From the NCBI GenBank assembly GCA_023898465.1, contig CP060223.1:704001-768000 (forward strand): a stretch of 64,000 nucleotides of DNA, given 5' to 3'. The notes beneath the pieces are model-generated. The model was not told the origin of the DNA, did not search any database, and saw nothing but the letters and a program-made list of their open reading frames with translations. The translations under genes and the position numbers were made by a program. The first letter of the stretch is position 1, and every line of letters starts with the position of its first letter. Source of the DNA: Candidatus Nomurabacteria bacterium. Lineage in GTDB: Bacteria; Patescibacteriota; Patescibacteriia; HK-STAS-PATE-3. Shown in pieces: positions 3,888 through 39,936 of the stretch.

Positions 3888-5183
3888 TTACTTCTTCACC
3901 AGGTTCTCGAAGCGCTTTGCGTCCTTATAGGGCCCAATAATTGCGAGATTCATCTTCTGCGGATTGATAATTTTGCGAGCCAGAGCATTTACCTCTTCCC
4001 TCGTCACCCGTTGAATCTTTGCCATCTTTTCAGCCGGAGTTTCAATCTTCTTGGTGAGTAGCCACTGCTTCCCAAACCAGGCGCCAATATGATCAGAATC
4101 TTCTAATTCCAGAACCAGCTTACCTTTAATAAATTCCTTCGCTCGTTTCAATTCCGCTTCCGTGATCCCCTGTTTCCGAATCTTCTCCAGCTCCACCAAG
4201 ATTGCCTTGATCGCTTCCTCGGTTCGCTCTTTTGCCACACCGGCTTGAATATAGAGATTGCCAGTATCCTCATACACGGTTGGCGTACAGCGAATAGCAT
4301 AGGCCAGACCGCGGCGCTCTCGGATTTGGATGAAAAGACGTGAGCTCATGTTGCCACCAAGGATGGAAGTCAGTAAAGACAGGGCGGGTAAACTCTTATC
4401 AAAGTAAGAGGCTGCCGGATAACCAATGCCAATCTGAGCCTGCTCAGTCTCTTTGTACATAACCCGCACTCGCGGCTTGGTGCCCGTGTAACGAAAAGGC
4501 TTGAAGGTAAGCTCCTTCTGCTTGGTAGCTGGCACCGTGAAAAGTTTTGCCAATTGCTCATCAATAGTCTCTTCATTATAGCGACCCGATACGACCACCA
4601 TCATATTGCTGGGGAAGTAGTGCGTCTTGTAGAACTTCAAAATAGTGTCGCGAGTCACATTACGAATCACCGAACGAGGCCCGGCGATTAATTGACCAAG
4701 CGTCGAGCCAGCGTACATGGTTTCCTCAAAAATATCCTCGAGGTACATGAGCGGGTTATCCTCGTACATGCTTATCTCTTCGATAATCACAGTGCGCTCT
4801 CGATCGATTTCCTTGGCGTCAAATTTAGAGTTCGCCAACATGTCTGCAATAACATCCAGGGCAAGGTGAAGGTGTTCCGAATTAATTTTAATGTAGTAGC
4901 CCGTGTGATCCTTGCCGGTGAAAGCATTGTACTCCGCTCCCACACCATCCAGTAGGCGTGAAATTGATAAAGTGCTGGGTCGTCGCTTCGTGCCCTTAAA
5001 CATCAAGTGCTCAACAAAGTGGGAAATACCATTTACAGGCTTGCTCTCATGTCGTGAACCAACTTTGGTTAAGACAAGCACAGTCACCGCTTTTGTCTCG
5101 TGCAAAGGCACCTTAAGTACCCGCATACCGTTTTTAAGGACCGAGGTCTGGTATGGCTTCCCTGTCGCAGATTGTTTAGGCAT
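3888..5183 (-). CDS. M16 family zinc peptidase (insulinase-like)
   Basis: HxxEH zinc motif (HFVEHLMFKGT); start taken at MPKQSATG, which is preceded by AGGAG; 4 nt after the glyQS stop. Confidence 0.8.
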   Translation of the reverse strand: MPKQSATGKPYQTSVLKNGMRVLKVPLHETKAVTVLVLTKVGSRHESKPVNGISHFVEHLMFKGTKRRPSTLSISRLLDGVGAEYNAFTGKDHTGYYIKINSEHLHLALDVIADMLANSKFDAKEIDRERTVIIEEISMYEDNPLMYLEDIFEETMYAGSTLGQLIAGPRSVIRNVTRDTILKFYKTHYFPSNMMVVVSGRYNEETIDEQLAKLFTVPATKQKELTFKPFRYTGTKPRVRVMYKETEQAQIGIGYPAASYFDKSLPALSLLTSILGGNMSSRLFIQIRERRGLAYAIRCTPTVYEDTGNLYIQAGVAKERTEEAIKAILVELEKIRKQGITEAELKRAKEFIKGKLVLELEDSDHIGAWFGKQWLLTKKIETPAEKMAKIQRVTREEVNALARKIINPQKMNLAIIGPYKDAKRFENLVKK

Positions 5184-6486
5184 GAAATTTCTCCTGGAAA
5201 AATGATGGTAGGTCTGCCAGTGCCACGCGTTCCTGTCCCATAGTATCGCGATCACGCACTGTTACTTTTTTATCTTCAGGTGTATCGAAATCAACTGTGA
5301 CGCAATATGGCGTGCCAATCTCATCCTGGCGTCGATAGCGACGACCAATTGAGGCGACTTCATCGTACGCGCACACAAAGTTCGATTTCAACGAGTCAAA
5401 TACTTCAGCAGCTACTTTGGTAAGTGGCTCTTTTTTTGACAATGGCAATATGGCGATTTTAATAGGAGCTAAGTCTTTATGCAGACGCAGCATGACTTCC
5501 TCCTCTTTATTACTCTCTGTAGTGGTTGTCCGTCCGCCCTCTACAACTTCGTAAGCATCGAGGAGAAAGGCTAAGGCAGAGCGCTCTACGCCGAAAGAAG
5601 GTTCAATAACGTATGGAGTAATCTTACCCTTCTCATCAGGGTATTCCATCCCATGTGCTTTCAAATCGTAATCAGTCCGGTTGGAAATACCAATTAACTC
5701 TCCCCAACCTTTGAAGGGCCAGTTATATTCCAGATCAACCGTTGCCTTGGCATAGTGGGCCAGCTCTTCTTTTTTCTGTTTGTACTCACGGACGCTGTTT
5801 TCCTTAATGCCCAGCGACTTAAACCAGGCAATGGATTCCTTCACCCAGTAGTCAAACCACTCCCCGTCTTCACCGGGTCGGACAAAAAACTCTAGCTCCA
5901 TTTGCTCAAATTCCCGTGAACGGAAAATAAAATTACCTGGGGTGATTTCGTTACGAAACGCTTTACCAATCTGCGCAATACCAAATGGTAATTTCATGCG
6001 CATGCTCTGCTGTACGGTTTCGAAGTTTACAAAAATGTTTTGAGCTGTTTCTGGACGTAGATACGCTGTAGAAGCATCGTCCTGCACCGGACCAACAAAG
6101 GTGCGAAACATAAGATTAAAGGCTCTTGCTTCTTCAAATTCTTTCTTGCCACAATTTGGGCAAGTCTCACTCATGTCTTCTTCTTTGAAACGCTGATGGC
6201 AAGATTTGCACTCTACTAGCTTGTCGCTAAATCCGCCCATGTGTCCGCTTTTTTGCCAAACAGTCGGGTTGGTCACAATGGCGCTGTCCAAACCAACCAC
6301 ATCGCGTCGCTCTTGAACAAAGTGTTTCCACCAGGCGCGCTTGATATTATTCTTTAGCTCAACCCCCAGCGGACCCCAATCCCAAAAGCCGCCCAGGCCA
6401 CCGTATTTTTCCGCAGTAGGAAAAATAAAACCACGGCGCTTTGCCAAAGATACCAACCGTTCCATCAAATCAGTTTGCGCGTTCAT
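5176..6486 (-). CDS. glyQS: glycine--tRNA ligase (dimeric class II GlyRS)
   Basis: Class II motifs (FRNEITPGNFIFRSREFEQMELEFF), C-terminal anticodon-binding domain; start taken at MNAQTDL, with TATACT box about 11 nt upstream and no SD. Confidence 0.9.
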   Translation of the reverse strand: MNAQTDLMERLVSLAKRRGFIFPTAEKYGGLGGFWDWGPLGVELKNNIKRAWWKHFVQERRDVVGLDSAIVTNPTVWQKSGHMGGFSDKLVECKSCHQRFKEEDMSETCPNCGKKEFEEARAFNLMFRTFVGPVQDDASTAYLRPETAQNIFVNFETVQQSMRMKLPFGIAQIGKAFRNEITPGNFIFRSREFEQMELEFFVRPGEDGEWFDYWVKESIAWFKSLGIKENSVREYKQKKEELAHYAKATVDLEYNWPFKGWGELIGISNRTDYDLKAHGMEYPDEKGKITPYVIEPSFGVERSALAFLLDAYEVVEGGRTTTTESNKEEEVMLRLHKDLAPIKIAILPLSKKEPLTKVAAEVFDSLKSNFVCAYDEVASIGRRYRRQDEIGTPYCVTVDFDTPEDKKVTVRDRDTMGQERVALADLPSFFQEKFHA

Positions 6487-6624
6487 ACATAAGGAGTATA
6501 GCCGATGCCTCCCTGCTTCGGCAAGGTTCAAATATTCTACCAGGCGTCCCTGCCTTCGCAAGGCTATAAATAGAAAGCCCCGCCTCATCTCAATACAAAG
6601 TGTTGTGATGGACGGGGCATGGGT

Positions 6625-6798
6625 TTAGGACGACGCATCGTCATCCTTCTTCTCTGGGTCGGGCTTCTCCTCCTCATCTTTTGGAGGATCACCACTCCCC
6701 CCGCTCGGTCGCCAATCCGTTGCAAAACGAACTGGCTCAATGAGCACTGGAGCTTCAGGTTCAGGCTCTTCCGGCGGCGGCTGTTCTGGAATTTTCAT
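6625..6798 (-). CDS. small acidic Pro/Glu-rich protein (57 aa), hypothetical
   Basis: ORF MKIPEQPPPEEPEPEAPV...KKDDDASS preceded by AAGGAG 6 nt upstream; high GC; not in ORF track (<60 aa). Confidence 0.35.
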   Translation of the reverse strand: MKIPEQPPPEEPEPEAPVLIEPVRFATDWRPSGGSGDPPKDEEEKPDPEKKDDDASS

Positions 6799-6865
6799 CA
6801 CGCGCTCCTTTTCGCCTCCATGGCATCAGCATCTTTCACCAAGTTGAAAAAGAAGTCAATAAGAA

Positions 6866-6925
6866 AAAGCCTCGCCTCGCACTTCGCTCACCCAAGGGTG
6901 AAAGAAGATACGAGACGAGGCGCTA
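6866..6925 (-). terminator. long imperfect hairpin plus U-tract on minus strand (repeat copy R1); tail contains TTGACT
   Basis: About 25-bp imperfect stem (GCCTCGCCTCGCA...ACGAGACGAGGCG around inner CTTCGCTCACCC/GGGTGAAAGAAG) followed on the minus strand by UUUUUCUUAUUGACUUC. Confidence 0.6.
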
Positions 6926-6939
6926 GCAATGTGCAATCC

Positions 6940-7497
6940 TCACAGCGCATCGAAGCTGATCAGTCGACCATCAGGACCAAAAACCCAAAGTCGACTCAGC
7001 CGCTCTAATGTTTGACGGAAGTTTTCCCTGTACTGCTCCAGCGTCGCCCGAACGATTTCCTGGCAATCCTCACCCTGAAGATTCGGGTCTGACTTCAGGG
7101 CAATGATATCGTCCCGGTAGCTTATCGCCGCCTGACGAAGCGCTGCAGCAATCCGACCATTCTGCTCGTGCACAAACTCCCTTCTCAATTGGCCTATGTA
7201 GGCCGCAGCCTGCTGCTCATAGTACTCGATGATCGCCCTGGACACTGCTTCAGCAACACTCAAACGAGTGGCGTAGTGAAGCTTGATCAGCTCCAGTGCT
7301 CTGGAATGGATTTGCCGGCGAAGCCTCCAGTCAAAACCAAAGTGTCCGAGACCTCGACAACGCTCCCTGGCTTCAGCTACTACCGCGTCAACATCCAGAT
7401 CGTTCAGCCCACTCTCCAAGGCCTGCGGCGAGGCACGTACCAAAGCAGATGAGTCAGTTGAGATAAACTCCCAGTTATCCTCTTCTCTACCCATAGG
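6940..7497 (-). CDS. hypothetical protein (about 185 aa from MGREEDNW start)
   Basis: High-GC ORF; internal start has AGGAGG 8 nt upstream overlapping the stop of the upstream gene (translational coupling). Confidence 0.5.
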   Translation of the reverse strand, partial: PMGREEDNWEFISTDSSALVRASPQALESGLNDLDVDAVVAEARERCRGLGHFGFDWRLRRQIHSRALELIKLHYATRLSVAEAVSRAIIEYYEQQAAAYIGQLRREFVHEQNGRIAAALRQAAISYRDDIIALKSDPNLQGEDCQEIVRATLEQYRENFRQTLERLSRLWVFGPDGRLISFDAL

Positions 7498-7498
7498 T

Positions 7499-7750
7499 CT
7501 AACCTCCTGGCAGAAGGAGCTGGCCTGCACCAAGTCTCCGTATCTGCTGATCATAGGATTGAAGCTGTCGTTCACGCTCACCAGATGCTAGACCCAATTT
7601 CGTCAGCTCAGCATCGAGCTTTCTTCGCTCCTCAATCAGGACTTCGGCAATTCGCTGCCGCGCTTCCTTCTGTATTCCCTCAACTTCGTCTCGGGTATGT
7701 TGTACGATTGTCCGAATGGACGCTAAGACCTCACTCTCTTCCACGGGCAC
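7499..7750 (-). CDS. hypothetical coiled-coil protein (83 aa)
   Basis: Charged heptad-like sequence; coupled to neighbouring genes. Confidence 0.45.
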   Translation of the reverse strand: MPVEESEVLASIRTIVQHTRDEVEGIQKEARQRIAEVLIEERRKLDAELTKLGLASGERERQLQSYDQQIRRLGAGQLLLPGG

Positions 7751-7753
7751 ACC

Positions 7754-8275
7754 TCATGCTCGATTAATGTCATCACGTGCCGTACCAAATGCATCTCGAT
7801 GGCGCCGCCGCTCTTCCTCAGACAAAGAGCCTTCCAAGCTGGCGAGATTCCGCCAGCCTCGCCGCTTTGCCTCAGCCTCACTCAGCTCCACTTCTCGAGC
7901 AGTATTGTTCATTGCTCCTAGGACTCGAATTCTACTTTCCTCAGTAGAGCGTGTGGCTGCCGTCCTTTGATCCATGCTATCTATCATAGCTTGCAACTTT
8001 GCAGAAGTTCGCAAAGAGTCAGCACGGCGCTTCTCAACTGCATTCTGAAACCACACGCGCTCTTCTTCTTCCCTCTTCTGTATCCGGCTTACGGCTCCAA
8101 CAAAAAGAAGGACGAGAATGATTGGCCAGAACTTTGCTACCAGAAACGCAAACAACAGAAACACGATGATTCCTATGACTGCCATAAGGCACACTCCCTG
8201 TGTCACGGTGTAATAACCAAAAGAAGAAAGGGCATGCGCCCCTTGCGTATTTTCAAGGTCCTTTCCGTTCTTCAC
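7754..8275 (-). CDS. membrane-anchored coiled-coil protein (173 aa), hypothetical
   Basis: One TM segment (VIGIIVFLLFAFLVAKFWPIILVLLFVGAV) then charged coiled-coil; GTG start 8 nt after a TTGACT-17-TATACA promoter-like motif inside the R2 tail. Confidence 0.5.
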   Translation of the reverse strand: MKNGKDLENTQGAHALSSFGYYTVTQGVCLMAVIGIIVFLLFAFLVAKFWPIILVLLFVGAVSRIQKREEEERVWFQNAVEKRRADSLRTSAKLQAMIDSMDQRTAATRSTEESRIRVLGAMNNTAREVELSEAEAKRRGWRNLASLEGSLSEEERRRHRDAFGTARDDINRA

Positions 8276-8319
8276 TTTTTGTATAACTCTAATATCTTAG
8301 GAAGTCAATGGATAAGAAA

Positions 8320-8378
8320 AAGAGCCCCGCCTCGCACTTCGCTCACCCGAGGGTGAAAGAAGATACGAGACGGGGCAA
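8320..8378 (-). terminator. long imperfect hairpin plus U-tract (repeat copy R2) with compensatory base-pair change relative to R1
   Basis: GCCCCGCCTCGCA...ACGAGACGGGGC; the T>C change in the 5' arm is matched by A>G in the 3' arm; tail CUCUUUUUCUUAUCCAUUGACUUC. Confidence 0.6.
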
Positions 8379-8407
8379 GGAGGCAGAGCTCGCCTGGTCG
8401 AAGATGA

Positions 8408-8959
8408 TCAGCCGAGCGTGGAGCTTCCGTGAAGCGTCTTCACGTCGATCTGCAGTGCCGCCGGGCCTCGAAAGTCACCGAGACGAAGTGACACTTCTTC
8501 TTGAACGTCGATCTGGTAGGAGCAGTCCATCTGGGTTTCATCACCCGCGTCCGGCAGGCGATCCCAGATGATGTACTGCGCCGTAGCATCCGGACCGGAT
8601 CGCGCAGTGACCTCCGGCACCGTGGTCCCATAGTGGCTGACGATGATGCTCTGAGTCCCCGGTTGTTCCGGCCGAGACGTCAGAACAGACTCGACCTGTA
8701 CCCACGGAGTCAGGGCGAAGTCGATCTGGACCTGATTGAAGCTGCTCTGATCCGAAGCCGGCAACAGAACAACCTCACCACCTGCGGAAGCGTAGAGACC
8801 GTCGGGAGCGATGGTGTTGTCGTCCATAGCGTACGTCGCCGCCATTTGAGACACACCCGGATCGTCCCCTCCGGCCGCGTAGATCGGCGGAGCGTGTGAA
8901 AGAGCGTAGCCGCACAGAACGATCAACGCGATCGCCCAGAGCGACAACTTCCTGAGCAT
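8408..8959 (-). CDS. secreted hypothetical protein (183 aa, signal peptide)
   Basis: N-terminal MLRKLSLWAIALIVLCGYALSHA signal-like segment; high GC. Confidence 0.5.
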   Translation of the reverse strand: MLRKLSLWAIALIVLCGYALSHAPPIYAAGGDDPGVSQMAATYAMDDNTIAPDGLYASAGGEVVLLPASDQSSFNQVQIDFALTPWVQVESVLTSRPEQPGTQSIIVSHYGTTVPEVTARSGPDATAQYIIWDRLPDAGDETQMDCSYQIDVQEEVSLRLGDFRGPAALQIDVKTLHGSSTLG

Positions 8960-9092
8960 GTGGACCTCCTAAGGCGAAGTTCCATCTCGTAAGCAACGTT
9001 GCTACTCCCACAATACTTTTGTGGTGAGCATTCACATGGTAACTAAAAGCTTCTCGAGTAGTCAATAGAAGAAGATACACAGTGAATACTGC

Positions 9093-11807
9093 CTATAACT
9101 CAGGCGCCTGCTCGACTCGGATAACCCCACCAACCTCTAAAATCGCTTTATCACGACGACCTAACTGACCCTTTAAGAGATAGTCAGCTAATGCGTTATC
9201 AACTCGCTCTTGAATAACACGGCGCAAAGGTCGAGCACCAAAGACCGGATCAAATCCAATCTCAGCTAATTCCTGCACCGCAGCTTCAGTTGCTTCAAAA
9301 GTAATACCGCGACCCTCTAATTGTCGTTGCACCTTTGCAAGAAGTAGGCGCACGATCTGCACAATCTCATCCTTTTGCAATGGGCGGAATACGGTAATCT
9401 TATCAAAACGGTTGAGAAATTCTGGGCGATAATATTGATTCAGCACGGAGTTGATGAGCTCCTGCGTAATACCTTCAATCGTGGCCTTTTCTTGAATGCG
9501 TTTTTGAATCAGGTCTGAACCTGCGTTGGAGGTTGAAATGATAATCGTATTGGTGAAGTCGATCGTACGACCAATGCCATCAGTTAATCGGCCATCATCA
9601 AACACCTGCAGGAAAATATTCAACACATCAGGATGCGCCTTTTCCAATTCATCAAGCAAGACGAGAGAGAAGGGACTCTTGCGCACCGCTTCAGTTAAGT
9701 AACCGCCTACTGGACCCTGCGTGCCTTGATTACTACCGATCAGGCGAGAAATACTGCTCGGCTCCTGATACTCCGACATGTCGAGACGGATCATCGCATC
9801 CTCGGATCCAAAATACGCTTCGGCTAAAGTTTTTGCCAGCTCGGTTTTACCTACACCAGTCGGACCAAGGAAAAGGAAGGTGGCAATCGGTCGCTTTTGA
9901 TCACGCAATTCTGCTCGAGCACGACGGAGCGCTGCGGCAACTGCTTTGACTGCCTCATCCTGACCAATGATGCGCTGATGCATGGTTGATTCCAAGTTGA
10001 GTAACTTCTCAGACTCGGACTCATTCACTTTAGTTACTGCCACATGCGTTTTACTAGAAACAATCTTTGCCACATCTTCACCGTCTACAAAACTATTCTT
10101 ACCTTTGTGCTTATGAGCATCAACTGCAACTTCTTCCAGCAAGCTAATCGCTTTTTCCGGCAAGTAGCGATCGTGCATGTAGCGCTGTGAAAGGACTACG
10201 GTTTTTTCTAATGCATCGTAGGTAAAGAAAATGTGATGCTTATATTCAAGCGGACCGGCCTTCACCATAAGTATGCGCACCGCTCCATCAGTATCTACTT
10301 CCTGGCAATCAACTTTGGTAAAGGTGCTGGTGAGTGAAGATTGGTTTTCAATATAGCGCGTGTAGTCAATTGGATTAGTGGTGCCGATCACCTGCACTCG
10401 TCCGGTCTCCAGTGCCTGACTCAACACATCAGAGAGATCAAAACTCTCTCCACCGGCTGAAGAAATACCAACAATGTTTTGAATATTATCAATGAGTAAA
10501 ATGATATTTCCTGACTTCACCACTTCAGACAAAATCTGATTCAAGCGTCCTTCTAATTCTCCAGTTGACCCGGCATTACCAACCAGAGCTGCCACAGATA
10601 ATGAAACCAGGCGCTTATCTTTCAAAACATCCGGCACTTCCTCGGTCACCATGCGGCGAGCAATGCCATCGACAATCGCAGTCTTCCCTACGCCAGGATT
10701 ACCAACCAACATGGGACTGCCGCCTCGCTCCAAAACGCGAAACATTTCATCCAGCACTTCCTCACGTCCGACAGTCATCGGGACAGCGCCCCGTTGCGCT
10801 AAATCAGTTAAGTCATGGCTGTACTGATTCAGCATTCGAGTTTCTTGTGCCGTCATGGCCCGGTTCATACCACGCTTCGGTCGCCAAGCTGCCCGCTTAC
10901 GGAAACGCTTATACTGCTCGCACAAATCTTCCTCAATATGCGCCCAAGCCACAACGTGTCGCAGCTTGTTCTCATCTACTTCTAGGTCATAAAGAATATC
11001 CTGGGTGTGCGTTTCTGAAGTAGCTAAGGCGACCAAGACTTCCAGCACGCCAACTTGTTGACGCTTCGTTGCATAGGCTTCTCGATAGGCAGCGCAGAGT
11101 AGCTTTTTTGTTGAAGTGGAAAGATGCGGCTCCCCTGGCCAATCCTGTGGCATGCCAGTGAAAAGTTTCCCAATGCGTTGCTTCAATTGCTCGTACTGAA
11201 TATTTAAACGGGCAAAAAGTACAGCCGCTGTCCGCGTAGTTAACATTGCCGCTAAAATATGCGAGGGCCAAATTTCACGATGATTTAAATGATTCGCAAT
11301 ATCCCAAGCCTGCTGCAGCATGTGCTCTAACTCGTTGTCGAGCAAAGCTGGTAGGTCCTCTACTTTGTCGGCAAAATCTGCCTCGGAGATTTGCTCCAAG
11401 GACAATACCGTCTCCATCTCAGCTGGAGTCTGTCGCGTAATTTTCTTTCGCGGTTTTAACTCTCGCTCAATGCGAAAGTAGGCGTAACAGTCAGTTGCTA
11501 ATGAAATCCAAAAGATCAACATAGCTGGGCTGCGCAAATCCCAAAGGTCGAGCAGTGAAGCGCCGCCCTGAAGCAGTTGATACAACTCCCAAAAACCAAT
11601 GAGGAAACCCGCCAGACCAAAGAAGACTAGGAAACCGTTTATAAAGGCACGTAATCCTCGAGCAAACTTTTCGCCACTTACTTCGCTGCGACCAAATGTT
11701 TTATCCCAGTACAAAATCCGACTGCCAAACATCTCAGAGTAAGGCGCTGGTCGCTGGCCCTTTGGACTGGCCGGTGCTGGATTAGAAAAGCTGTCGGATG
11801 ATGGCAT
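9093..11807 (-). CDS. Clp/Hsp100 family AAA+ ATPase (ClpA/B/C-like) with unusual N-terminal hydrophobic extension
   Basis: Two Clp_N repeats, Walker A GNPGVGKTA (NBD1) and GPTGVGKTELAK (NBD2), sensor motifs; no long M-domain; first about 140 aa contain two TM-like helices, so the true start is uncertain. Confidence 0.85.
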   Translation of the reverse strand: MPSSDSFSNPAPASPKGQRPAPYSEMFGSRILYWDKTFGRSEVSGEKFARGLRAFINGFLVFFGLAGFLIGFWELYQLLQGGASLLDLWDLRSPAMLIFWISLATDCYAYFRIERELKPRKKITRQTPAEMETVLSLEQISEADFADKVEDLPALLDNELEHMLQQAWDIANHLNHREIWPSHILAAMLTTRTAAVLFARLNIQYEQLKQRIGKLFTGMPQDWPGEPHLSTSTKKLLCAAYREAYATKRQQVGVLEVLVALATSETHTQDILYDLEVDENKLRHVVAWAHIEEDLCEQYKRFRKRAAWRPKRGMNRAMTAQETRMLNQYSHDLTDLAQRGAVPMTVGREEVLDEMFRVLERGGSPMLVGNPGVGKTAIVDGIARRMVTEEVPDVLKDKRLVSLSVAALVGNAGSTGELEGRLNQILSEVVKSGNIILLIDNIQNIVGISSAGGESFDLSDVLSQALETGRVQVIGTTNPIDYTRYIENQSSLTSTFTKVDCQEVDTDGAVRILMVKAGPLEYKHHIFFTYDALEKTVVLSQRYMHDRYLPEKAISLLEEVAVDAHKHKGKNSFVDGEDVAKIVSSKTHVAVTKVNESESEKLLNLESTMHQRIIGQDEAVKAVAAALRRARAELRDQKRPIATFLFLGPTGVGKTELAKTLAEAYFGSEDAMIRLDMSEYQEPSSISRLIGSNQGTQGPVGGYLTEAVRKSPFSLVLLDELEKAHPDVLNIFLQVFDDGRLTDGIGRTIDFTNTIIISTSNAGSDLIQKRIQEKATIEGITQELINSVLNQYYRPEFLNRFDKITVFRPLQKDEIVQIVRLLLAKVQRQLEGRGITFEATEAAVQELAEIGFDPVFGARPLRRVIQERVDNALADYLLKGQLGRRDKAILEVGGVIRVEQAPEL

Positions 11808-27778: not shown

Positions 27779-28180
27779 GGGGATGCCCAATAATCGATCG
27801 ATCGTTCACAATCTGTGCAGGCAAGCCGGTCACCCAGGTCTCCCGTAACAGGCCCTGGAAAAAGCAAGTGTCAATTCATTTGCCAGCAAGGTAAAGAACT
27901 CCATTGCTAACGCAATGCAGTCACTCCAACTTGCGCCAGTTGTCGCGTAAAAACCGATAACCATCTATGCTTACGATGTCCTGAGTTGTTCGCATGGGTG
28001 CTACACTTATCAGGATAGGAACCTACCTTGTCTCGGGTTTGTTCCGAACTATTGAGACTAGGAAATAAATGATTTCGTTCGTTTCATACATTTGTTTCTG
28101 AAGCATTAAAGCGAACTAGGCTTGTAGAATGTACACGATTGTACGATGAGACGCGGGCGTGATACCCGCCATCTCCACCA
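27779..28180 (+). ncRNA. ssrA: candidate tmRNA (ssrA)
   Basis: Directly downstream of smpB; 5' GGGGAUG pairs with 3' CAUCUCC-A-CCA giving a G3-U70 wobble; T-arm GCGGG/cgugaua/CCCGC precedes the acceptor 3' strand; candidate tag reading frame GCU AAC GCA AUG CAG UCA CUC CAA CUU GCG CCA GUU GUC GCG UAA (ANAMQSLQLAPVVA) at 27906..27950. Confidence 0.55.
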
Positions 28181-30726: not shown

Positions 30727-30953
30727 ATCAAATAGACAACAAAATCTAGGAAATACGGATGAGAGTATATCAGTAACTTATTAAGCTGTCTAGGGTTTTA
30801 TTAGCCTTGAAAACCCCACCCTCCCCGGACCGCCGGAACAACTGACTGCGTCTCAGAAACACATGAGGAGAGAGTTCAATGCGCTTCAAGGAATACAGTC
30901 GGCTCCTGGCGGCCTGGGGAGAGGGTAACGACTAGGCGTTACCCTGTGTGTTG

Positions 30954-31139
30954 CTAGAGGTAGTGAGGCACGAAGAGAGGGCGTCGGCCGAAGTCAGGCC
31001 CTTTCCCTACGGGCTTAACAACCCGTCGTGTGAAACTCCTTCGATCTGTGTAGGTCGTCGCGATGCAGAGCTTATAACCCCGCTCCTCTGCGACCTGATC
31101 AGGATCGAAGTCAAAAACATCGACAGTGGACTTTGGCAT
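30954..31139 (-). CDS. small hypothetical protein (61 aa)
   Basis: GAGGAGG 5 nt upstream of ATG; high GC; shares the ..VD..D..E..Y...TTYT.R.. core with 31266..31619. Confidence 0.4.
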   Translation of the reverse strand: MPKSTVDVFDFDPDQVAEERGYKLCIATTYTDRRSFTRRVVKPVGKGPDFGRRPLFVPHYL

Positions 31140-31265
31140 GCAGACCTCCTCGGGTACTCAGCCTCTAGGGTTTGTACAAACTATTCCTCCTCTCACGCCT
31201 CCTCAAAAGAAGAAGTGAGAGGAGGAGAGCAAGTCAGTCGAAACTGCTTGCTCTCCAAAGAAAGA

Positions 31266-31619
31266 TCAACAGTGGTAGGTCTTCGGTCTCTGGCCTCCGA
31301 AAAGGCCGCGGTGCAGACCAGCGTCCGACCTCCTCGTCCTGCGCGGATTCAACCCGTCCTTGGGCGTACATCCGCGAGAAGTGTAGGTCGTCTGTCTCTG
31401 TGCGCCACCTACCCATGGAGCGTAGTTGACGCCGAGGTCGAGCTTCTCCCGAACCGAGAGGCTCGAGAGATCAACAGGACCGATTTGAGGATCGGATTTC
31501 GATTCCGGAGTGAAGTGATCCGTGACCTTCAGCCACGAACCATTCCCTTCTATCCGAACTGACCCTGGACGCGCGTGAATTCTACACATGCCTTCCCCCA
31601 TCTGCTTGCACTGATCCAT
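31266..31619 (-). CDS. hypothetical protein (up to 117 aa; true start uncertain), paralog of 30954..31139
   Basis: C-terminal 60 aa align to the 61-aa neighbour (PVDLSSLSVREKLDLGVNYA..TTYTSRG vs TVDVFDFDPDQVAEERGYKL..TTYTDRR); DNA-level imperfect repeat (CAACCCGTC..GTGTAGGTCGTC). Confidence 0.35.
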   Translation of the reverse strand: MDQCKQMGEGMCRIHARPGSVRIEGNGSWLKVTDHFTPESKSDPQIGPVDLSSLSVREKLDLGVNYAPWVGGAQRQTTYTSRGCTPKDGLNPRRTRRSDAGLHRGLFGGQRPKTYHC

Positions 31620-31724
31620 CAGTGCATGTAAAGGTCCATCTCTACTCCCAACCCCTTCTCACATTCCTGTGAAATGGGATAGGGGTACTTTAGCGGAAGC
31701 GCCTGCTTCTCGCAAGAATCAGCC

Positions 31725-31808
31725 ACCTCCCCTGGACACTCCTCCTCAATGAGGATTGCCCGGGGGAGGCCACGTACACCGATGCATAAGCCTCCGGTGG
31801 ACGTGGCT
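31725..31808 (-). promoter_or_regulatory. structured leader element C, copy 1 (two hairpins, core GUGUCCAGGGGAG)
   Basis: Read on the minus strand: CACGUCCACC..CGGUGUACGUG hairpin followed by CCCCGGG..CCUC..GAGG..GUGUCCAGGGGAG; homologous to 32602..32674. Confidence 0.55.
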
Positions 31809-32577: not shown

Positions 32578-32601
32578 GTCTCCTCCCTGAGTTTGTATTC
32601 T

Positions 32602-32674
32602 CCCCTGGACACCCCTCTTGAGAGGTACCCGGGGAAGATCACGTCCACCGAAGCTTCATGCAAGGGTGGACGTG
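32602..32674 (-). promoter_or_regulatory. structured leader element C, copy 2, ending 13 nt before the pilD SD
   Basis: Minus-strand reading CACGUCCACC cuugcaugaagcuucg GGUGGACGUG (10-bp perfect stem) then CCCCGGGUACCUCUCAAGAGGGGUGUCCAGGGGAGA; second-hairpin inner stem differs compensatorily from copy 1. Confidence 0.55.
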
Positions 32675-32686
32675 ATCGCTGAGCGC

Positions 32687-33097
32687 TTACTCGCGCTGCG
32701 GGGTCAGGACAAGGACGGACTCGCCATCCTTTCCATTGACCGTGATGCGATAGGAGGAGAAGAACTCGGCCGGATCGTAGTAGACCGCACCAGACTCCTT
32801 CCCAGCCTTGTCGTAGGACCCGACGTCGTAGACCGCCGTACCTCCGAAGGGATTCCGGATACTACGCCTGGCGTTCGCCACCCCAGCGATGGAATCCGGA
32901 TAGACTCCTCCGTTCGCTGTAGCCCAGTCATCGACCATGTCCTGCACTTCGTAGGCATTGGACTTGGCCGTCGACAGACGTGCCCTGTCCTGCAGCGCCA
33001 GGTAATTCGGGACGGCGATGAGCGCCAGGATCCCGATGATGACCACCACGATCATGAGCTCGATGAGGGTGAATCCCTCCTGATTCTTCCGAAGCAT
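32687..33097 (-). CDS. type IV pilin / pseudopilin (class III signal peptide)
   Basis: MLRKNQEG|FTLIELMIVVVIIGILALIA: Gly-1, Phe+1, Glu+5 prepilin signature; GAGGAGGAA SD upstream; ORF track extends to a TTG at 33163 but the ATG at about 33097 fits the leader-peptide length. Confidence 0.75.
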   Translation of the reverse strand: MLRKNQEGFTLIELMIVVVIIGILALIAVPNYLALQDRARLSTAKSNAYEVQDMVDDWATANGGVYPDSIAGVANARRSIRNPFGGTAVYDVGSYDKAGKESGAVYYDPAEFFSSYRITVNGKDGESVLVLTPQRE

Positions 33098-33149
33098 CAC
33101 TTCCTCCTCTCTGGCTTCACCGGCAGCCAGTTGCCGTTGTAGAGAATAT

Positions 33150-33235
33150 TTTTCTCTCCGCAATCCTTATTCCCTTCCTCCCCTTTCAAAAGGGGAGGCT
33201 AGGTGGGGTTAAGAACTCTGGAGAGAGGAGGAGGA
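33150..33235 (-). promoter_or_regulatory. structured leader element, family A/B, copy B1 (variant with CCUCCCC/GGGGAGG inner hairpin)
   Basis: Minus-strand reading CCUCCUCCUCUCUCCAGAG..[CCUCCCC uuuugaaa GGGGAGG]..UUGCGGAGAG about 50 nt upstream of the pilin SD; the 5' pyrimidine tract is complementary to the SD GAGAGGAGG. Confidence 0.55.
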
Positions 33236-33435
33236 CAACCAAGGCAGAAGTGACACAAGGTCACAACCGCGAAGATCGACCCTCCTCCATGTGCTAGTGA
33301 CGCCCGCATTCGCGCCAAAGTTGGCGGGTGAGCAGACGGCGGTGATGCGTCAATCCGCATCGAGCTCGCAGCGCCCGACGACGCTGCCACTCGTGCAAAA
33401 AGAGTTCCACATGATGGAAAAATGATATGACACCC

Positions 33436-33612
33436 TCCATCACTTGAACTCCTGATTACAGAAGCAATACGCGCTCCGCGCCATCCATGTTACCCCGCTC
33501 AAGAAGAGCAAGAGACAAAAGAAGGCGGTGAGTGGCCCGATCGGAGTGGTCAGCGCTCCGAGCATGCCAAGCGATAGCAGTTCAGCAGCCACTGCCTGAA
33601 AAAGATATCGCA
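33436..33612 (-). CDS. small membrane protein (58 aa), hypothetical
   Basis: ATG with AGGAGG 6 nt upstream; MRYLFQAVAAELLSLGMLGALTTPIGPLTAFFCLLLFLSGV...; overlaps the 3' end of 33582..34211 in another frame; <60 aa so not in ORF track. Confidence 0.3.
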
Positions 33613-34211
33613 TCCTTGCCTCCTAGGTTTCTGGTCCGATATGCACCGAACCAGACTACAACGTGACAGACCAGGCTGACGCCTGGATATACCAGAGCCG
33701 CGAAACCATCCGGCCAGGCAACAACACCTTGCAACGCATACGCCAGCACGCCCAAACTCCACGGCCACTGGCTCATGCGCTGAGTACGAGAGAAACTCAT
33801 CTTCGCTATAGGTACAAAGGAAGGGATCACCACCACCTGAGCGATGATGTTCTCTGCCTTTGGATTATGAGCAAGGGTTGCGTAACCCAGAGCTATCACA
33901 ACGCCAATTCCCATAGACATGTCCCACGCGTCGATCCTCGCAATCTGGCTGACTTGCTTCCACCCGAGCTTCACAATGTACGCAAGGGTGAAGAGCATGA
34001 TCAGGCTAATGCAGGCGACCTGCACATAGGTAAAGATGCGCGCGTAAAGTGACGTGAATTCCCGATAGGTAAGAAAATTCAACATCACCCACACAAACCA
34101 CATCCCGATGGTAACGGGATGCGGCACTTCGCCCTTGAAGATGGCTCGGAGATACGCGAAGTATGCTCCAGCCAAAGCCAAGGAAGCAAGAACCATACAT
34201 ACCGCTCCCAT
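33582..34211 (-). CDS. polytopic membrane protein, hypothetical (209 aa)
   Basis: Five to six predicted TM helices; no recognisable family. Confidence 0.45.
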   Translation of the reverse strand: MGAVCMVLASLALAGAYFAYLRAIFKGEVPHPVTIGMWFVWVMLNFLTYREFTSLYARIFTYVQVACISLIMLFTLAYIVKLGWKQVSQIARIDAWDMSMGIGVVIALGYATLAHNPKAENIIAQVVVIPSFVPIAKMSFSRTQRMSQWPWSLGVLAYALQGVVAWPDGFAALVYPGVSLVCHVVVWFGAYRTRNLGGKDAISFSGSGC

Positions 34212-34399
34212 GAATACCTCCAGCTAAACGTGTTTTCTTCCTCCCTTGAATAACTAAACTCAATTTAGTAACTCAAGGGAGGCTCCGTCCATGTAGGTGT
34301 GACATGGACGGAGCGGTACGGCCTTGAACCTTTCAAAAAAGGCGGCCGCCATCACTGCGCTGCGTATGTTTGGTGATGCAACGCTTTGTGACAAAGCTG

Positions 34400-34497
34400 T
34401 GGCAGATGCAGGATTCGAACCCAACGACTCGCGAAAGAGTCATCTGGTGAATCGGTTGTTAACCGACGGGACCACTCCCTGGTCACCAGCACCTGCC
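34400..34497 (-). ncRNA. aberrant tRNA-like element (98 nt)
   Basis: Reverse complement begins GGCAGGTG and ends GGGTTCGAATCCTGCATCTGCCA: perfect T-loop consensus, 7-8-bp acceptor helix, candidate anticodon arm UCGG-UUAACAA-CCGA, 26-nt variable arm with GACUC/GAGUC hairpin; T-stem and D-arm are poor; TATACT box 7 nt upstream of the 5' end. Confidence 0.3.
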
Positions 34498-34507
34498 AAT
34501 AAAGTAT

Positions 34508-34555
34508 ACACTCTCCGCAGTCCCGTACCTCACATGGTACGAGGCTCTGGAGAGA
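34508..34555 (-). promoter_or_regulatory. structured element, family A/B, copy A1 (variant with CGUACC/GGUACG inner hairpin), immediately upstream of the tRNA-like element
   Basis: CUCUCCAGAGCC[UCGUACC augugag GUACGGG]ACUGCGGAGAG on the minus strand. Confidence 0.5.
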
Positions 34556-34592
34556 TCCGGAGCAAGTAACGTGTACTTACTCCGGAGAGAAA
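34556..34592 (-). terminator. hairpin after the 139-aa gene (CTCCGGA..TCCGGAG 7-bp stem)
   Basis: Perfect 7-bp inverted repeat with 19-nt loop directly after the stop of 34595..35014. Confidence 0.35.
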
Positions 34593-34594
34593 GG

Positions 34595-35014
34595 TCACAT
34601 GACGCGACCGAGCCTCGATCGAAGTCGTCCGAGCTGCGGCACAGTGAGAAGATCGTTCCGATGCTGAGAGCGTCGTCTCTCTTCTTCTGCACGACACCTC
34701 TCGGTCTCGCGCTTCTGTCGCTTGTCCGCTTCAGTCTTCCGCCACGCTTCCAGCGCGTGACGGAGCGTGTGGAGGACGTCGTACGCATCCTCCGGACGAT
34801 GCGATGCGCAATGTGGCTCGACCACTCCGTGCGTCTGACCTCGATGCGGGCAATACGCCTGCTTCGGACTGCAGGCTTGGCCGCACTGACGACAGACCAG
34901 ACTAGCCTCTTCCGGGTTCGCCAAGATCTTTTCGACCTCGGCTTCAGTGAAAGACCTCGGGACCATGTAGGACCCGGACTCGCTGAGAACCATCATCGAG
35001 ATTGAGAATGACAT
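34595..35014 (-). CDS. hypothetical protein with Cys/His cluster (139 aa)
   Basis: GAGGAGG 6 nt upstream of ATG; CRQCGQACSPKQAYCPHRGQTHGVVEPHCASH plus Arg/Glu-rich C-terminus. Confidence 0.5.
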   Translation of the reverse strand: MSFSISMMVLSESGSYMVPRSFTEAEVEKILANPEEASLVCRQCGQACSPKQAYCPHRGQTHGVVEPHCASHRPEDAYDVLHTLRHALEAWRKTEADKRQKRETERCRAEEERRRSQHRNDLLTVPQLGRLRSRLGRVM

Positions 35015-35064
35015 CGTAGCCTCCTCACTGACTTCCGGCGTCAGCAGCCGCTTAGAGAAACCAT

Positions 35065-35112
35065 TTCCTCTCCGCAGTCTCGTACCTCACATGGTACGAG
35101 GCTCTGGAGAGG
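35065..35112 (-). promoter_or_regulatory. structured leader element, family A/B, copy A2, about 50 nt upstream of the SD of 34595..35014
   Basis: Near-identical to A1 (one substitution in the inner stem); shares the extended flank GAGAAACCATTTCCTCTCCGCAGTC with copy B2. Confidence 0.55.
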
Positions 35113-35157
35113 CCCCGAACTGTGGAAGCTCAGGGCGAAAATCGATTGGACTTGAGA

Positions 35158-35595
35158 CTAGGTTAGTCTCTCAACCGATTTCACGTACACCCAACCCTTC
35201 AATCGGCCTCGAACGTAAGATACGGTGACCTCACTTCCTTCAGCAACAGCATCGAAGAGCTGACGTTCTACAGAAACAGTATCTCGTCCTTCAGCAACAT
35301 CGACTGTCAGCTCCCACTTGTCGGAGTGGTGTACGCTTTGAGGCAGAGTCGTTTTTGTTGCCGCATTATAGACATACATAACGGTGACGTGTGCGGCCGT
35401 GAACGTCTTGTTAACAACGCGCCCTCGGCCCTCTTGAAGCGGTCGGAACCACGAGTCAATCGCCGTGAAGATGCCCCAACCCAGCGCAACGAGCACGATG
35501 AGCACGATGAGAAGTATGACTGCAGCTAGGAGTGACCCATAGGGCCAATCGTTCAAGAGCTCCATAAATCCCCTCATCATATCAGCCGAAAACAT
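35158..35595 (-). CDS. membrane-anchored hypothetical protein (145 aa)
   Basis: GGGAGGG 5 nt upstream of ATG; one TM (LLAAVILLIVLIVLVALGWGIF) then soluble beta-rich domain. Confidence 0.5.
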   Translation of the reverse strand: MFSADMMRGFMELLNDWPYGSLLAAVILLIVLIVLVALGWGIFTAIDSWFRPLQEGRGRVVNKTFTAAHVTVMYVYNAATKTTLPQSVHHSDKWELTVDVAEGRDTVSVERQLFDAVAEGSEVTVSYVRGRLKGWVYVKSVERLT

Positions 35596-35624
35596 ATCGC
35601 CCTCCCTTTGCTAGAGAAACCATT

Positions 35625-35705
35625 TCCTCTCCGCAGTCCTCATTCCCTTCCTCCCCTTTCAAAGGGGAGGCTAGGTGGGGTTAAGAACTCTGGAGAGAGG
35701 AGGAG
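35625..35705 (-). promoter_or_regulatory. structured leader element, family A/B, copy B2
   Basis: About 95% identical to B1 across the CCUCCCC/GGGGAGG hairpin and flanks; about 25 nt upstream of the SD of 35158..35595. Confidence 0.55.
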
Positions 35706-35767
35706 AAGGGCAGTCTTCTTCTCCAGTGTACTTGTCACCCGCTCTACTGCCTGCGGGAAAGAACTAG

Positions 35768-36217
35768 TCAGATGCACTCAGGGTGTGCACCGACATAACG
35801 CCCTTCCACTCCTATTGTAGAGACGTAATCTCCACAAATCTCCCCTCCACACATGACACAACCATGGGTAGCACATGGTTCCTTTTCTCGGGGTGTCCAG
35901 TCACAGGACCCCCCTCTTTCCTTGCCGCATGAGTAGCACGCGGCTACCCACTCGACAATTCCCTTGTGATCTTCAGGGGATTGGATGGGTACCTGGAATG
36001 ATATCCCCGTCAGATCCACACCACAGAATTTGCACTGTTTGTCATATACCGTCCCACGCCGAACTTCCAGTTCGGCTAGTCCGCGTTGATCCATCCCTGC
36101 CATTTCCCCTTTCCTTATGGTGGGGATATGATCGTTACAATATGCAACGTCATAAAGCAGGCCAGATGTGTAGTGAGTCGCGACCTGGTTACACGTATGA
36201 CAATGGATGGTCTTCAT
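35768..36217 (-). CDS. Cys-rich hypothetical protein with four CxxC pairs (tandem zinc ribbons), 149 aa
   Basis: HCHTCN, CKFCG, CYSCG, CVMCGG motifs. Confidence 0.45.
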   Translation of the reverse strand: MKTIHCHTCNQVATHYTSGLLYDVAYCNDHIPTIRKGEMAGMDQRGLAELEVRRGTVYDKQCKFCGVDLTGISFQVPIQSPEDHKGIVEWVAACYSCGKERGGSCDWTPREKEPCATHGCVMCGGEICGDYVSTIGVEGRYVGAHPECI

Positions 36218-39809: not shown

Positions 39810-39936
39810 GTAGCCCTCCACAGGTTGATAGAAAAGAGCAGCTACTCAGTATGTACCATGCGCAAAAGACTCCGTCAAATAAAGAAAGCCCCTCTACATC
39901 CTGCAAAGGGGCTGTACTTGCGGTGAGTGAACGAGG

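Follow-up and report, generated by a model that had tools for sequence, protein, structure and literature searches.

A duplicated terminator-like hairpin module within a strain-variable islet of a Candidatus Nomurabacteria genome

Two long hairpins, R1 and R2, on the minus strand of a Candidatus Nomurabacteria genome are paralogous copies of one another, and they probably represent a Rho-independent terminator that was duplicated together with an adjoining -35 box of the next promoter. The source is a MAG of the candidate phyla radiation with a genome of ~1.08 Mb, of which a stretch of 64 kb was analysed (the window); its source samples include SRR12358675 and SRR17818317. Both hairpins lie in an islet of four ORFan genes (p183, p143, p81 and p184), ~2.2 kb long and variable between strains, that occupies the gap between a ClpB-like gene and the gene for GlyRS.

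Results

The islet was delimited by comparison with L074, a close relative whose GlyRS is 96% identical at the amino acid level to that of the window (protein USN53219.1). L074 lacks p183, p143, p81 and p184 as well as both hairpins but retains p57, and its gene order (ClpB-like gene, 75 nt, p57, GlyRS) represents the empty site, in agreement with the original prediction that the region is an insertion. That prediction had named conservation with typical composition in relatives among the observations that would speak against it, and had called for a comparison with related genomes; the islet is not conserved there. Relative to L074 the indel spans ~9030 to 6802, with R2 ~650 nt and R1 ~50-65 nt inside it, and the hairpins do not delimit the islet as had been proposed but bracket the inner three-gene operon only. 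The right insertion junction (6794..6801, minus strand) consists of the octamer GTGATGAA, which includes the p57 start codon, also closes the left junction in a second strain (strain B) and is present in a single copy at the empty site.

The islet had further been described as holding five genes, the fifth being p57 (6625..6798, minus strand), which encodes a small acidic Pro/Glu-rich protein. Since p57 is retained in the islet-free L074, with a pS of 0.43 and a pN of 0.03 that are the same as those of GlyRS, it is on this comparison a backbone gene rather than islet cargo. Its high GC content comes from its amino acid content, as its GC3 is only 0.483. Downstream of p57 lies a terminator-like hairpin, R0 (6577..6618, minus strand), similar to R1 and R2 in its basal stem (GCCCCGUC...GAGGCGGGGCU) and in its U-rich tail; between R0 and its L074 ortholog there is an independent C-G/U-A compensatory change.

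In L075-L080 the synteny of TGT, ClpB-like gene, variable gap, GlyRS, M16 peptidase and AI-2E transporter is kept while the contents of the gap differ, and in the more distant L019 only 72 nt separate the ClpB-like gene from GlyRS. In L078 the gap is occupied by a real diversity-generating retroelement; an ORF of 55 aa in the gap of L080 was considered as a p57 homolog and rejected. With an empty site in L074, other contents in L075-L080 and conserved flanking synteny, the ClpB-like/GlyRS gap is, as far as these genomes indicate, a hotspot of variable content across this lineage of Patescibacteria. Core synteny on both sides, differing contents, an empty site in a close relative, and family-less cargo that includes one compositionally atypical gene are shared with genomic islets at hotspots; unlike these, the present islet is only 2.2 kb long, carries no integrase, tRNA or phage gene and shows at its junction only a direct repeat of 8-9 bp (GTGATGAA). 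Neither a recombinase nor a transposase was found among the islet genes, no integrase-like match among the islet proteins or their ClpB-like and GlyRS neighbours, no viral loci for p184, p183 or p143, and no blastn match of the islet to phages and plasmids. The GC content of the islet is 0.535 as opposed to 0.492 for the window. The original prediction had called all of its genes high-GC, which strictly holds for p183 only (GC 0.605, GC3 0.707, z about 4), the sole compositional outlier and the only islet gene of clearly foreign composition; p184 is mildly raised and the GC3 values of p143 and p81 are ordinary.

All four islet genes are on the minus strand. p183 (8408..8959, locus tag H6760_03540) has a predicted Sec-type signal peptide and an AGGAGG 6 nt before its ATG; p143 (7754..8185, ATG 8185) combines a hydrophobic N terminus with a charged helical region; p81 (7499..7744, GTG 7744) is a small protein, charged and helical, whose translation is coupled to that of its neighbours; and p184 (6940..7494, ATG 7494), preceded by an AGGAGG, is all-alpha. 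The repeats do bracket three coupled genes, as predicted, namely the inner p143-p81-p184 operon, although the lengths given for these (173, 83 and ~185 aa) differ from the 143, 81 and 184 aa called in public assemblies. For the five proteins (p57 included), no match to Pfam, PADLOC, PHROGs or NCBIfam reached the threshold, in keeping with the prediction that none belongs to a recognisable family, and sequence searches of solved structures returned no significant match for p183, p143, p81 or p184. The four islet proteins have no relatives outside this species: the homologs of p183 are itself and a strain B allele at 52% identity, and searches of 5.8 billion clustered proteins and 1.84 billion representatives returned for p184 the strain B allele only. 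Paralogy of p183 and p184 was considered and rejected. The set comprises one presumably exported protein, as predicted, and a small helical group that is possibly membrane-associated.

The two copies of the repeat, first noted as near-identical direct repeats at ~6866-6925 and ~8320-8378, match at 54 of 58 positions (93%) between 6864-6921 and 8319-8376, and the repeat pattern has two matches in the 64 kb compared with none in 100 shuffles. The duplication of a cassette is confirmed, and local alignment extends the repeat from the proposed 85 bp to ~115 nt, both copies being on the minus strand. The R1 module (6852..6967, minus strand) comprises an 18-nt block inside the 3' end of p184, a spacer, the hairpin, the U tract and TTGACTTC; in the R2 module (8301..8415, minus strand) the same elements follow an 18-nt block that lies over the p183 stop. 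The block, TCG[A/G]CTGATCA[G/T]CTTCGA, falls within the 3' ends of p184 and p183, and at the other end the repeat takes in the tail TTTTTCTT(ATCC)ATTGACTTC. Either flank alone outscores 1000 of 1000 shuffles. Past the hairpin the repeat continues into the coding 3' ends of two unrelated genes, in frames that differ, and we infer from this that a stretch of DNA with the 3' end of a gene in it was duplicated.

Further copies were sought widely, as the original prediction had advised. Within the 64-kb window (of the ~1.08 Mb genome) none was found by blastn at word size 7 or with a covariance model, and 35 related loci contained no hairpin copies beyond the strain B orthologs. A pattern scan for the hairpin core returned three matches only from GTDB species-representative genomes, all unrelated, palindromic and chance-like, and none from JGI metagenomes and IMG/VR. 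With only two copies in the window and none elsewhere outside the same species, the idea of a genome-wide hairpin family is weakened. Beyond both copies and the strain B fragments, the covariance model recovered generic terminator-like hairpins only, among them R0, with 27 bits, and, at 31174-31226, a hairpin unrelated to these, with 26 bits. A second higher-GC cluster of the window, at 32.6-36.3 kb, also contains duplicated intergenic hairpin modules.

In the minus-strand RNA, the R1 hairpin (6869..6921; -36.8 kcal/mol) starts 18 nt past the p184 stop, and the R2 hairpin (8324..8376; -41.0 kcal/mol) 31 nt past the p183 stop; the sequences after them are UUUUUCUUAUU for R1 and UCUUUUUCUUAU for R2. 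Both are 53 nt long and form 23 bp, close to the ~25 bp of the imperfect hairpin originally described, interrupted by a bulge and a 1x1 internal loop and capped by a tetraloop. Stretches of 91 and 96 nt fold at -38.4 and -42.7 kcal/mol (z-scores of -6.5 and -6.9), and none of 200 shuffles folds as well as either. Folds of the plus strand are weaker (-32.1 and -33.8), since C.A mismatches take the place of three G.U pairs there, and the U tract follows the stem on the minus strand only, with no T run on the plus strand. R1 and R2 have the orientation of all local genes.

Of the four differences between the two hairpins, all transitions and all structure-neutral, two make up a compensatory pair, and the others affect a loop base and a base of the 1x1 internal loop; no pair is broken. 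The compensatory stem change that had been predicted is found at pair 4-50, which is U-A in R1 and C-G in R2; comparison with strain B places the origin of the U-A pair in the R1 of the window, with changes on both sides. This covariation concerns a single pair among three sequences and lacks significance, being matched by 159 of 500 shuffles. The bulge at position 14 is present in all copies, and the 1x1 mismatch 19/36 is unpaired throughout, with position 36 changed from C to U in strain B. The short-read contigs of strain B break exactly at the hairpin apex, which indicates that such repeats fragment assemblies of the locus.

A stable G+C-rich stem-loop, a U tract directly 3' of it, placement shortly after a stop codon and co-orientation with the genes are the one-directional anatomy of Rho-independent terminators, and the pairing of R1 and R2 is preserved through a compensatory change as in these. 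The proposal that the hairpins are terminators whose tails carry a -35-like box accordingly agrees with the anatomy of orientation-specific intrinsic terminators, as read from the sequence. In contrast, a stem of 23 bp (53 nt, about -40 kcal/mol) exceeds the roughly 5-14 bp of the typical intrinsic terminator and is about twice the usual size. Other terminator-like hairpins of the window have an overall length of 25-30 nt and energies of -17 to -25 kcal/mol; they have similar U-rich tails, one of which, at 39888, runs into TTGAC. Terminators are, moreover, normally unrelated to one another in sequence, whereas R1 and R2 are 93% identical and their likeness continues into coding sequence and the -35 box. 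Termination by itself does not explain the length of the hairpin or the conserved bulge and mismatch. A search of Rfam with the 5-12 kb region at E <= 1 gave no match, and a search of the literature returned no work on intrinsic terminators of Patescibacteria.

A U-rich tail carrying TTGACT is present on the minus strand after both hairpins, as predicted. In the R2 tail (8280..8308, minus strand), the predicted spacing is found: TTGACT (8308-8303) is separated by a 17-nt spacer from TATACA (8285-8280), which lacks the final T of the consensus; the hexamers match the consensus at 9 of 12 positions and are identical in strain B, where 3 of the 17 spacer positions are changed. In the R1 tail TTGACT is followed after 17 nt by AAAGAT, a -10 candidate with 3 of 6 matches (8 of 12 overall), and the putative promoter there is weak. 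A consensus promoter scan called neither site. The spacing of the hexamers would place the start of transcription near 8273. The GTG that had been taken as a start codon 8 nt from TATACA is in fact 4 nt away (GTG at 8275) and lies at or upstream of this predicted transcription start, which makes it incompatible with the promoter unless the mRNA is leaderless. A third promoter-like site (9036..9065, minus strand), located after the ClpB-like stop, consists of TTGACT, 18 nt and TACCAT; it is orthologous to a TTGACT-bearing intergenic region of the islet-free relative and likely drives p183. Between the R2-tail site and p143 a small leader hairpin (8227..8244, minus strand; AAGGGGC-GCAU-GCCCUUU, then CUUCUUUU) keeps its stem in strain B with a wholly replaced loop; in context it folds no better than shuffles.

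The strain comparison involved two strains only, the window and strain B. The 3' half of R1 and p57 were not recovered for strain B: contigs L071-L073 are identical to the window, and cluster member P0126 yielded a noisy, unrelated contig. Between the two strains the locus is a mosaic in which blocks of 92-100% identity (8585-8195 and 7925-6891) alternate with hyperdivergent 5' gene segments, and the high-identity blocks contain R2 and end in R1. The hyperdivergent segments cover the 5' two-thirds of p183, whose last 65 aa are nearly identical, and the 5' 60% of p143. Synonymous divergence in the islet core (pS 0.11-0.13) is three times below that of the flanking ClpB-like gene (0.37), which points to recent exchange. 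With pN/pS against strain B of about 0.09 for p81 and about 0.29 for p184, these genes, like p57, are under purifying selection.

Discussion

We favour a model in which the core of the module is a strong unidirectional terminator acting on the minus strand, with a U-rich tail that would lead directly into the TTGACT -35 box. The promoter at ~9065-9036, after the ClpB-like gene, would drive p183, whose transcript would be terminated at R2; the promoter at 8308-8280, with a leader of ~88 nt, would then drive p143-p81-p184 up to termination at R1. Downstream of R1 would follow a weak promoter, p57, R0, the GlyRS promoters and GlyRS. Termination and promoter use at R1 and R2 are deduced here from sequence features, and the terminators may serve to insulate the inserted units from one another and from the essential GlyRS downstream.

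The mosaic relationship to strain B raises the question of whether the module is chiefly a recombination anchor, i.e., a pair of homology arms or a landing pad for the gain of ORFan segments (e.g., Campbell-type integration of a circle that carries one copy) and for swaps of allelic 5' segments between strains, with termination as a secondary role. Identity blocks that hold R2 and end in R1, an islet-core pS of 0.11-0.13 next to 0.37 in the ClpB-like gene, which implies recent exchange, and a repeat that includes the coding 3' ends of two unrelated genes, each in another frame, are all consistent with such a role, as are the duplicated intergenic hairpin modules of the 32.6-36.3 kb higher-GC cluster, and a single crossover would leave direct repeats around a 1.3-kb insert. 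However, the comparison covers two strains only, the presence/absence boundary against L074 does not match the hairpins, the islet is without a recombinase, and ordinary homologous recombination with diversifying selection accounts for the mosaic equally well without any special role of the module; we regard this explanation as unlikely. The long helix could also act in RNA processing or stability or in protein binding beyond termination, as an RNase III-type substrate or as a 3' stabiliser that sets the half-life of the mRNA. It would then be understandable that the stem is much longer and more stable than other terminator-like hairpins of the window, that the position-14 bulge occurs in all copies and that the 19/36 mismatch stays unpaired despite the C to U change in strain B, but the copies are so similar that a recent duplication alone may account for the conserved bulge and mismatch, and neither an Rfam match nor further copies by covariance model were obtained, which makes such an element improbable in our view.

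Imperfect palindromes with copies in direct orientation are also known from REP/BIME and IS200/IS605-type elements, and R1 and R2 flank a gene set of 1.3 kb, so one could think of a REP- or MITE-like mobile palindrome or of the subterminal hairpins of a non-autonomous IS200/IS605-type element carrying three genes; a Y1 transposase gene is present in the related genome L079. We consider this very improbable: unlike in those systems, the 64 kb contain R1 and R2 only and the 35 related loci add just their strain B orthologs, the GTDB scan gave three unrelated matches and the JGI and IMG/VR scans none, the hairpins do not mark the limits of the polymorphic unit, no transposase is found in the islet and no Y1 transposase in the window region examined, and a U tract and -35 box within the repeat suit a regulatory module better. 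The recurrence of similar imperfect hairpins with an extrahelical base beside family-less genes is reminiscent of integron attC sites with promoterless gene cassettes, an interpretation that the present evidence disfavours and that we hold to be hardly credible, as the stems lack flanking RYYYAAC/GTTRRRY core sites and run into a U tract, no integrase is nearby, and one "cassette" would consist of three coupled genes with a promoter-like site of their own. The least plausible reading, likewise disfavoured by the evidence and given almost no weight here, takes the repeat as plus-strand coding sequence, on the grounds that ORFs at 6619-7008 and 8308-8571 are both open across it and have a common peptide, ...ASHFAHPRVKEDTRRG...; these ORFs are antisense to p57, p184 and p183, which show minus-strand purifying selection or strong ribosome-binding sites, and the palindrome with its G.U asymmetry accounts for the repeat without coding. 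Diversity-generating retroelement repeats were rejected for an islet that has neither RT nor Avd and whose four repeat differences are all structure-neutral transitions.

Returning to the duplicated terminator with its promoter box, one may speculate further, as a long shot, that the 115-nt module is a portable unit reused by genomes of the candidate phyla radiation. Such a unit would allow newly acquired ORFan genes to be expressed and would also supply, at a conserved hotspot, the homology through which genes are gained cassette by cassette and alleles are exchanged, in analogy to integron cassettes but without an integrase; the 32.6-36.3 kb cluster would be another instance. The strain variability of the islet proteins suggests, speculatively, a role at the cell surface or in interactions with host or phage. 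The overall architecture is tidy and fairly ordinary and will not surprise a specialist. If our reading is right, every inserted unit comes with a strong terminator to which the box of the following promoter is joined, and a genome of ~1 Mb would in this way accommodate a foreign gene set between two housekeeping genes and leave both undisturbed. The ClpB-like/GlyRS gap would also stand out as a place where strains of Nomurabacteria-like bacteria vary, a hotspot at the strain level.

A four-gene insertion between the ClpB-like and GlyRS genes

Gene models were taken from public gene calls on identical contigs, which give five minus-strand genes, named here by protein length, beside a ClpB/ClpC-like AAA+ gene (9093-11807): p183 (8408-8959), p143 (7754-8185, with an ATG start preceded by GGGAG, not the GTG at 8275), p81 (7499-7744), p184 (6940-7494, with AGGAGG 8 nt upstream) and p57 (6625-6798). 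The original prediction described a five-gene islet delimited by duplicated hairpins and proposed a comparison with relatives, in which the islet proved not to be conserved. In a close relative (L074), whose GlyRS and ClpB-like proteins are each 96% identical to those of the window at about 85% nucleotide identity, the ClpB-like stop codon is followed by 75 nt, a p57 ortholog and GlyRS, while p183, p143, p81, p184 and both hairpins are absent. The approximately 16 synonymous and 4 non-synonymous changes between p57 and this ortholog (pS 0.43, pN 0.03) match the divergence of GlyRS (pS 0.45, pN 0.02), which argues that p57 is a vertically inherited backbone gene. On this comparison the islet is a four-gene insertion whose ends lie near 9030 and 6802 (~2.2 kb); p57 does not belong to it, and the hairpins do not delimit it, as both lie inside the insertion and bracket an inner operon only.

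The right junction, GTGATGAA, contains the p57 start codon. In strain B, a second strain of the same species, the ancestral intergenic sequence closes with this octamer at the left junction (L069 position 895), and the empty site has it once; the junction repeat is compatible with a short duplication of the target during insertion, or else with a deletion mediated by microhomology. The ClpB-like genes of the window and strain B differ at a pS of 0.37, against 0.59 and 0.53 to L074, and the two strains are sisters relative to L074. As more distant relatives also lack p183, p143, p81 and p184, gain of the islet is more parsimonious than its deletion.

As had been predicted, the five proteins belong to no recognisable family: none reached the threshold of any Pfam, PADLOC, PHROGs or NCBIfam model. 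The only relative of p184 was a single 93%-identical allele (5.8 billion clustered proteins; 1.84 billion representatives scanned in full by HMMER), and p183 matched only its own sequence and a 52%-identical allele; an identical p183 is annotated on the 1,082,586-base contig of a Candidatus Nomurabacteria MAG. A phage or plasmid origin of the islet was set aside, the searches having found no relatives there. AlphaFold modelled p184 as an all-alpha bundle (pLDDT 66) whose structural neighbours are only generic; its model of p183 was unusable. Judged by divergence from strain B, p184 (pS 0.11, pN 0.03) and p81 (pS 0.13, pN 0.01) are real genes under purifying selection. The neighbouring ClpB/ClpC-like protein carries an N-terminal extension of ~150 aa with hydrophobic segments before the Clp_N domain, which suggests a membrane-anchored unfoldase; the ClpB-like proteins of relatives are similar in length (908-916 aa).

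High GC, predicted for all five genes, holds clearly for p183 and mildly for p184. GC is 0.535 in the islet and 0.492 in the window, where 31-36 kb is equally GC-rich. The sole composition outlier is p183 (GC 0.605, GC3 0.707, z ~4); p184 is slightly raised, and GC3 is ordinary in p143, p81 and p57, the GC of p57 being high because of its Pro/Glu content.

Two hairpins in a duplicated module

Two direct repeats were found where predicted (6864-6921 and 8319-8376, 54/58 identical), and their 43-nt core pattern matched twice in the 64-kb window and never in 100 shuffles. Read as minus-strand RNA, R1 (6921-6869) and R2 (8376-8324) are 53-nt hairpins capped by a CUUG or CUCG tetraloop; the 23 base pairs of each are interrupted by a single bulged U and a 1x1 internal loop. 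The 91- and 96-nt stretches containing R1 and R2 fold at -38.4 and -42.7 kcal/mol (z-scores -6.5 and -6.9; 0/200 shuffles as good), and the hairpins alone at -36.8 and -41.0 kcal/mol. The plus-strand folds are weaker (-32.1 and -33.8 kcal/mol) because three G.U pairs turn into C.A mismatches, and the orientation of the hairpins therefore matches that of the surrounding genes, all on the minus strand. A U tract lies directly 3' of each stem (UUUUUCUUAUU in R1, UCUUUUUCUUAU in R2), followed in both copies by TTGACTTC, where R2 has a 4-nt insertion that is absent from strain B.

By local alignment the repeat is longer than predicted, at ~115 nt (6967-6852 versus 8415-8301). It starts with an 18-nt block, TCG[A/G]CTGATCA[G/T]CTTCGA. 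One copy of this block falls within the p184 3' end and the other crosses the p183 stop codon, the reading frame differing between them. Either flank alone scored above 1000/1000 shuffles, which argues that the modules are one duplicated piece of DNA and not two convergent terminators.

Three full copies of the hairpin could be compared (R1 and R2 of the window, R2 of strain B). They differ at four positions without breaking a pair: two form the predicted compensatory substitution, at pair 4-50 (C-G/U-A), the third is a loop base and the fourth belongs to the 1x1 internal loop. Position 4 is C in the R1 5' half of strain B, so the U-A pair of window R1 is a lineage-specific change on both sides. 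This pattern fits the prediction of a maintained helix, though it is statistically not strong, 159/500 shuffles equalling the covariation signal with three sequences.

A probable terminator fused to a promoter-like box

R1 and R2 are best read as intrinsic terminators that are strong and act in one direction, each joined to the -35 box of the following unit. Each hairpin would end a transcript, its U-rich tail leading into that box, and the duplicated module would organise the islet units by insulating them; termination, initiation and insulation are what we infer for the modules. A hairpin after p57, R0 (6618-6577, minus), has the same design, with a near-identical basal stem (GCCCCGUC...GAGGCGGGGCU), a similar U-rich tail and its own C-G/U-A compensatory change relative to L074. 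Together with a terminator-like hairpin at 39888 that likewise leads into TTGAC, it suggests that closely apposed terminators and promoter boxes are usual in this compact genome.

Downstream of R2, the predicted promoter-like site is present (8308-8280, minus), with TTGACT (8308-8303), a 17-nt spacer and TATACA (8285-8280); strain B retains both hexamers and has three spacer changes. The GTG at 8275, predicted as the start of the gene, lies only 4 nt past the -10 candidate, at about the predicted transcription start, and is therefore compatible with this promoter only for a leaderless mRNA. For p143 the better start is the ATG at 8185, with a ribosome-binding site in both strains. The operon leader contains a small hairpin (8227-8244, minus; AAGGGGC-GCAU-GCCCUUU, then CUUCUUUU), whose stem is kept in strain B with 4/4 loop bases replaced (AGGC); in context its fold was no better than shuffles, and it could be an attenuator or a coincidence. 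The -10 candidate 3' of R1 is poor (AAAGAT), and p57 may be expressed partly via read-through or another signal.

Downstream, the GlyRS homologs and the NCBI annotation (431-446 aa) place the GlyRS start at the ATG at 6486 (436 aa), not at 6588; the mechanical ORF (5176-6588, 470 aa) is too long at its 5' end, as is the Logan gene call. A -10-like TATACT ends 8 nt upstream of this ATG, which hints at a leaderless mRNA or a very short leader. The promoter region (6495-6575) has 38 nt more than L074 (1430-1490), resembling a tandemly duplicated CCTTGC(C)GAAG(G)CAGGGA and yielding a second promoter-like site, TTGCGA-16-TAGAAT.

The R1 and R2 stems are about twice those of other terminator-like hairpins in the window, a size that termination alone does not explain. 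Two non-exclusive, less likely alternatives are that the hairpins act in RNA processing or stability, and that the complete module serves as a homology anchor during cassette exchange. Mobile-element readings fared less well: attC sites were rejected for absent core motifs, the absence of an integrase nearby and the presence of a U tract, and REP/MITE or IS200-type ends for having two copies only in the 64-kb window, off the boundaries of the polymorphic unit and with no transposase in the islet. A diversity-generating repeat pair was rejected as there is no reverse transcriptase in the islet and the differences are all structure-neutral transitions, and plus-strand coding because the ORFs are antisense to genes under purifying selection.

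A mosaic islet in a variable gap

The strain B islet is represented by two short contigs of one sample (L069 and L008, SRR17818317), which both end exactly at an R-hairpin apex and share a 7-nt overlap, CCTTGGG, the join of the contigs being inferred. Both hairpin copies are thus present in strain B, and repeated palindromes evidently fragment short-read assemblies of this locus. Divergence between the strains alternates: the intergenic region and 5' two-thirds of p183 (9095-8600) are hyperdivergent; the segment from the 3' third of p183 through R2 and the promoter-like site to the leader (8585-8195) is 80-100% identical in windows of 60 nt, mostly ≥90%; p143 is again hyperdivergent in its 5' part (8195-7925); and the remainder of p143, p81, p184 and R1 (7925-6891) are 82-100% identical, mostly ≥92%. 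Synonymous divergence of the conserved core (0.11-0.13) is one third of that of the adjoining ClpB-like gene (0.37), which argues that the two lineages have shared the core since a time later than the backbone split.

Where GlyRS is 74-77% identical, the gene order is kept (TGT, a small gene, ClpB-like, gap, GlyRS, M16 peptidase, AI-2E transporter, methylase, CysRS) and the gap content differs genome by genome. The gap holds five genes in L075-L077, none with a significant Pfam match, two genes in L079, and 250 nt with no convincing gene in L080; in the more distant L019, ClpB-like and GlyRS are 72 nt apart. In L078 (GCA_043800725.1, contig JAZDMR010000011.1, region 5100-10100; GlyRS 76% identical) it holds a complete diversity-generating retroelement comprising an HTH protein, a 200-aa target gene, bAvd and a reverse transcriptase, with a variable repeat at the 3' end of the target gene (6729-6862), a template repeat (7231-7364; 134-nt pair, 92%) and inverted repeats bracketing the whole element (5495-5651 and 9036-9192; 157 nt, 97%). 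The gap is a lineage-wide hotspot, and the islet a small strain-variable insertion there.

Small minus-strand genes form another cluster of raised GC at 32600-36300, which includes a type IV pilin-like 158-aa protein adjoining a prepilin-peptidase-like gene, a Cys-rich 149-aa protein and several others. Its intergenic modules are also duplicated (33150-33233 and 35623-35705, ~85 nt, 91-94%, and 34511-34561 and 35068-35118, 51 nt, 92%, both with hairpins; 35053-35079 and 35612-35638, 27 nt, 100%); regulatory-module reuse is therefore not confined to the 6.6-9.1 kb islet. One copy of the 51-nt repeat adjoins a 99-nt tRNA-Val called by ARAGORN (anticodon AAC, 34399-34497, minus), which scores below the gathering score of the Rfam tRNA model; the call may be spurious, or the tRNA may be degenerate or interrupted. 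A tmRNA gene (27779-28180, plus; RF00023, 74 bits) lies on the strand opposite most window genes, and ~1 kb at 30750-31800 has no convincing ORF or Rfam match and contains strong hairpins at 31174-31226 and ~31722 (52 nt, -36.6 kcal/mol).

Overall, the original observation was sound and careful, and its interpretation is trimmed to a four-gene hotspot insertion with a duplicated terminator/-35 module. The one mildly unusual trait is a very long terminator-like hairpin copied with its flanks; the islet and its module are a fresh example of already known kinds of feature.
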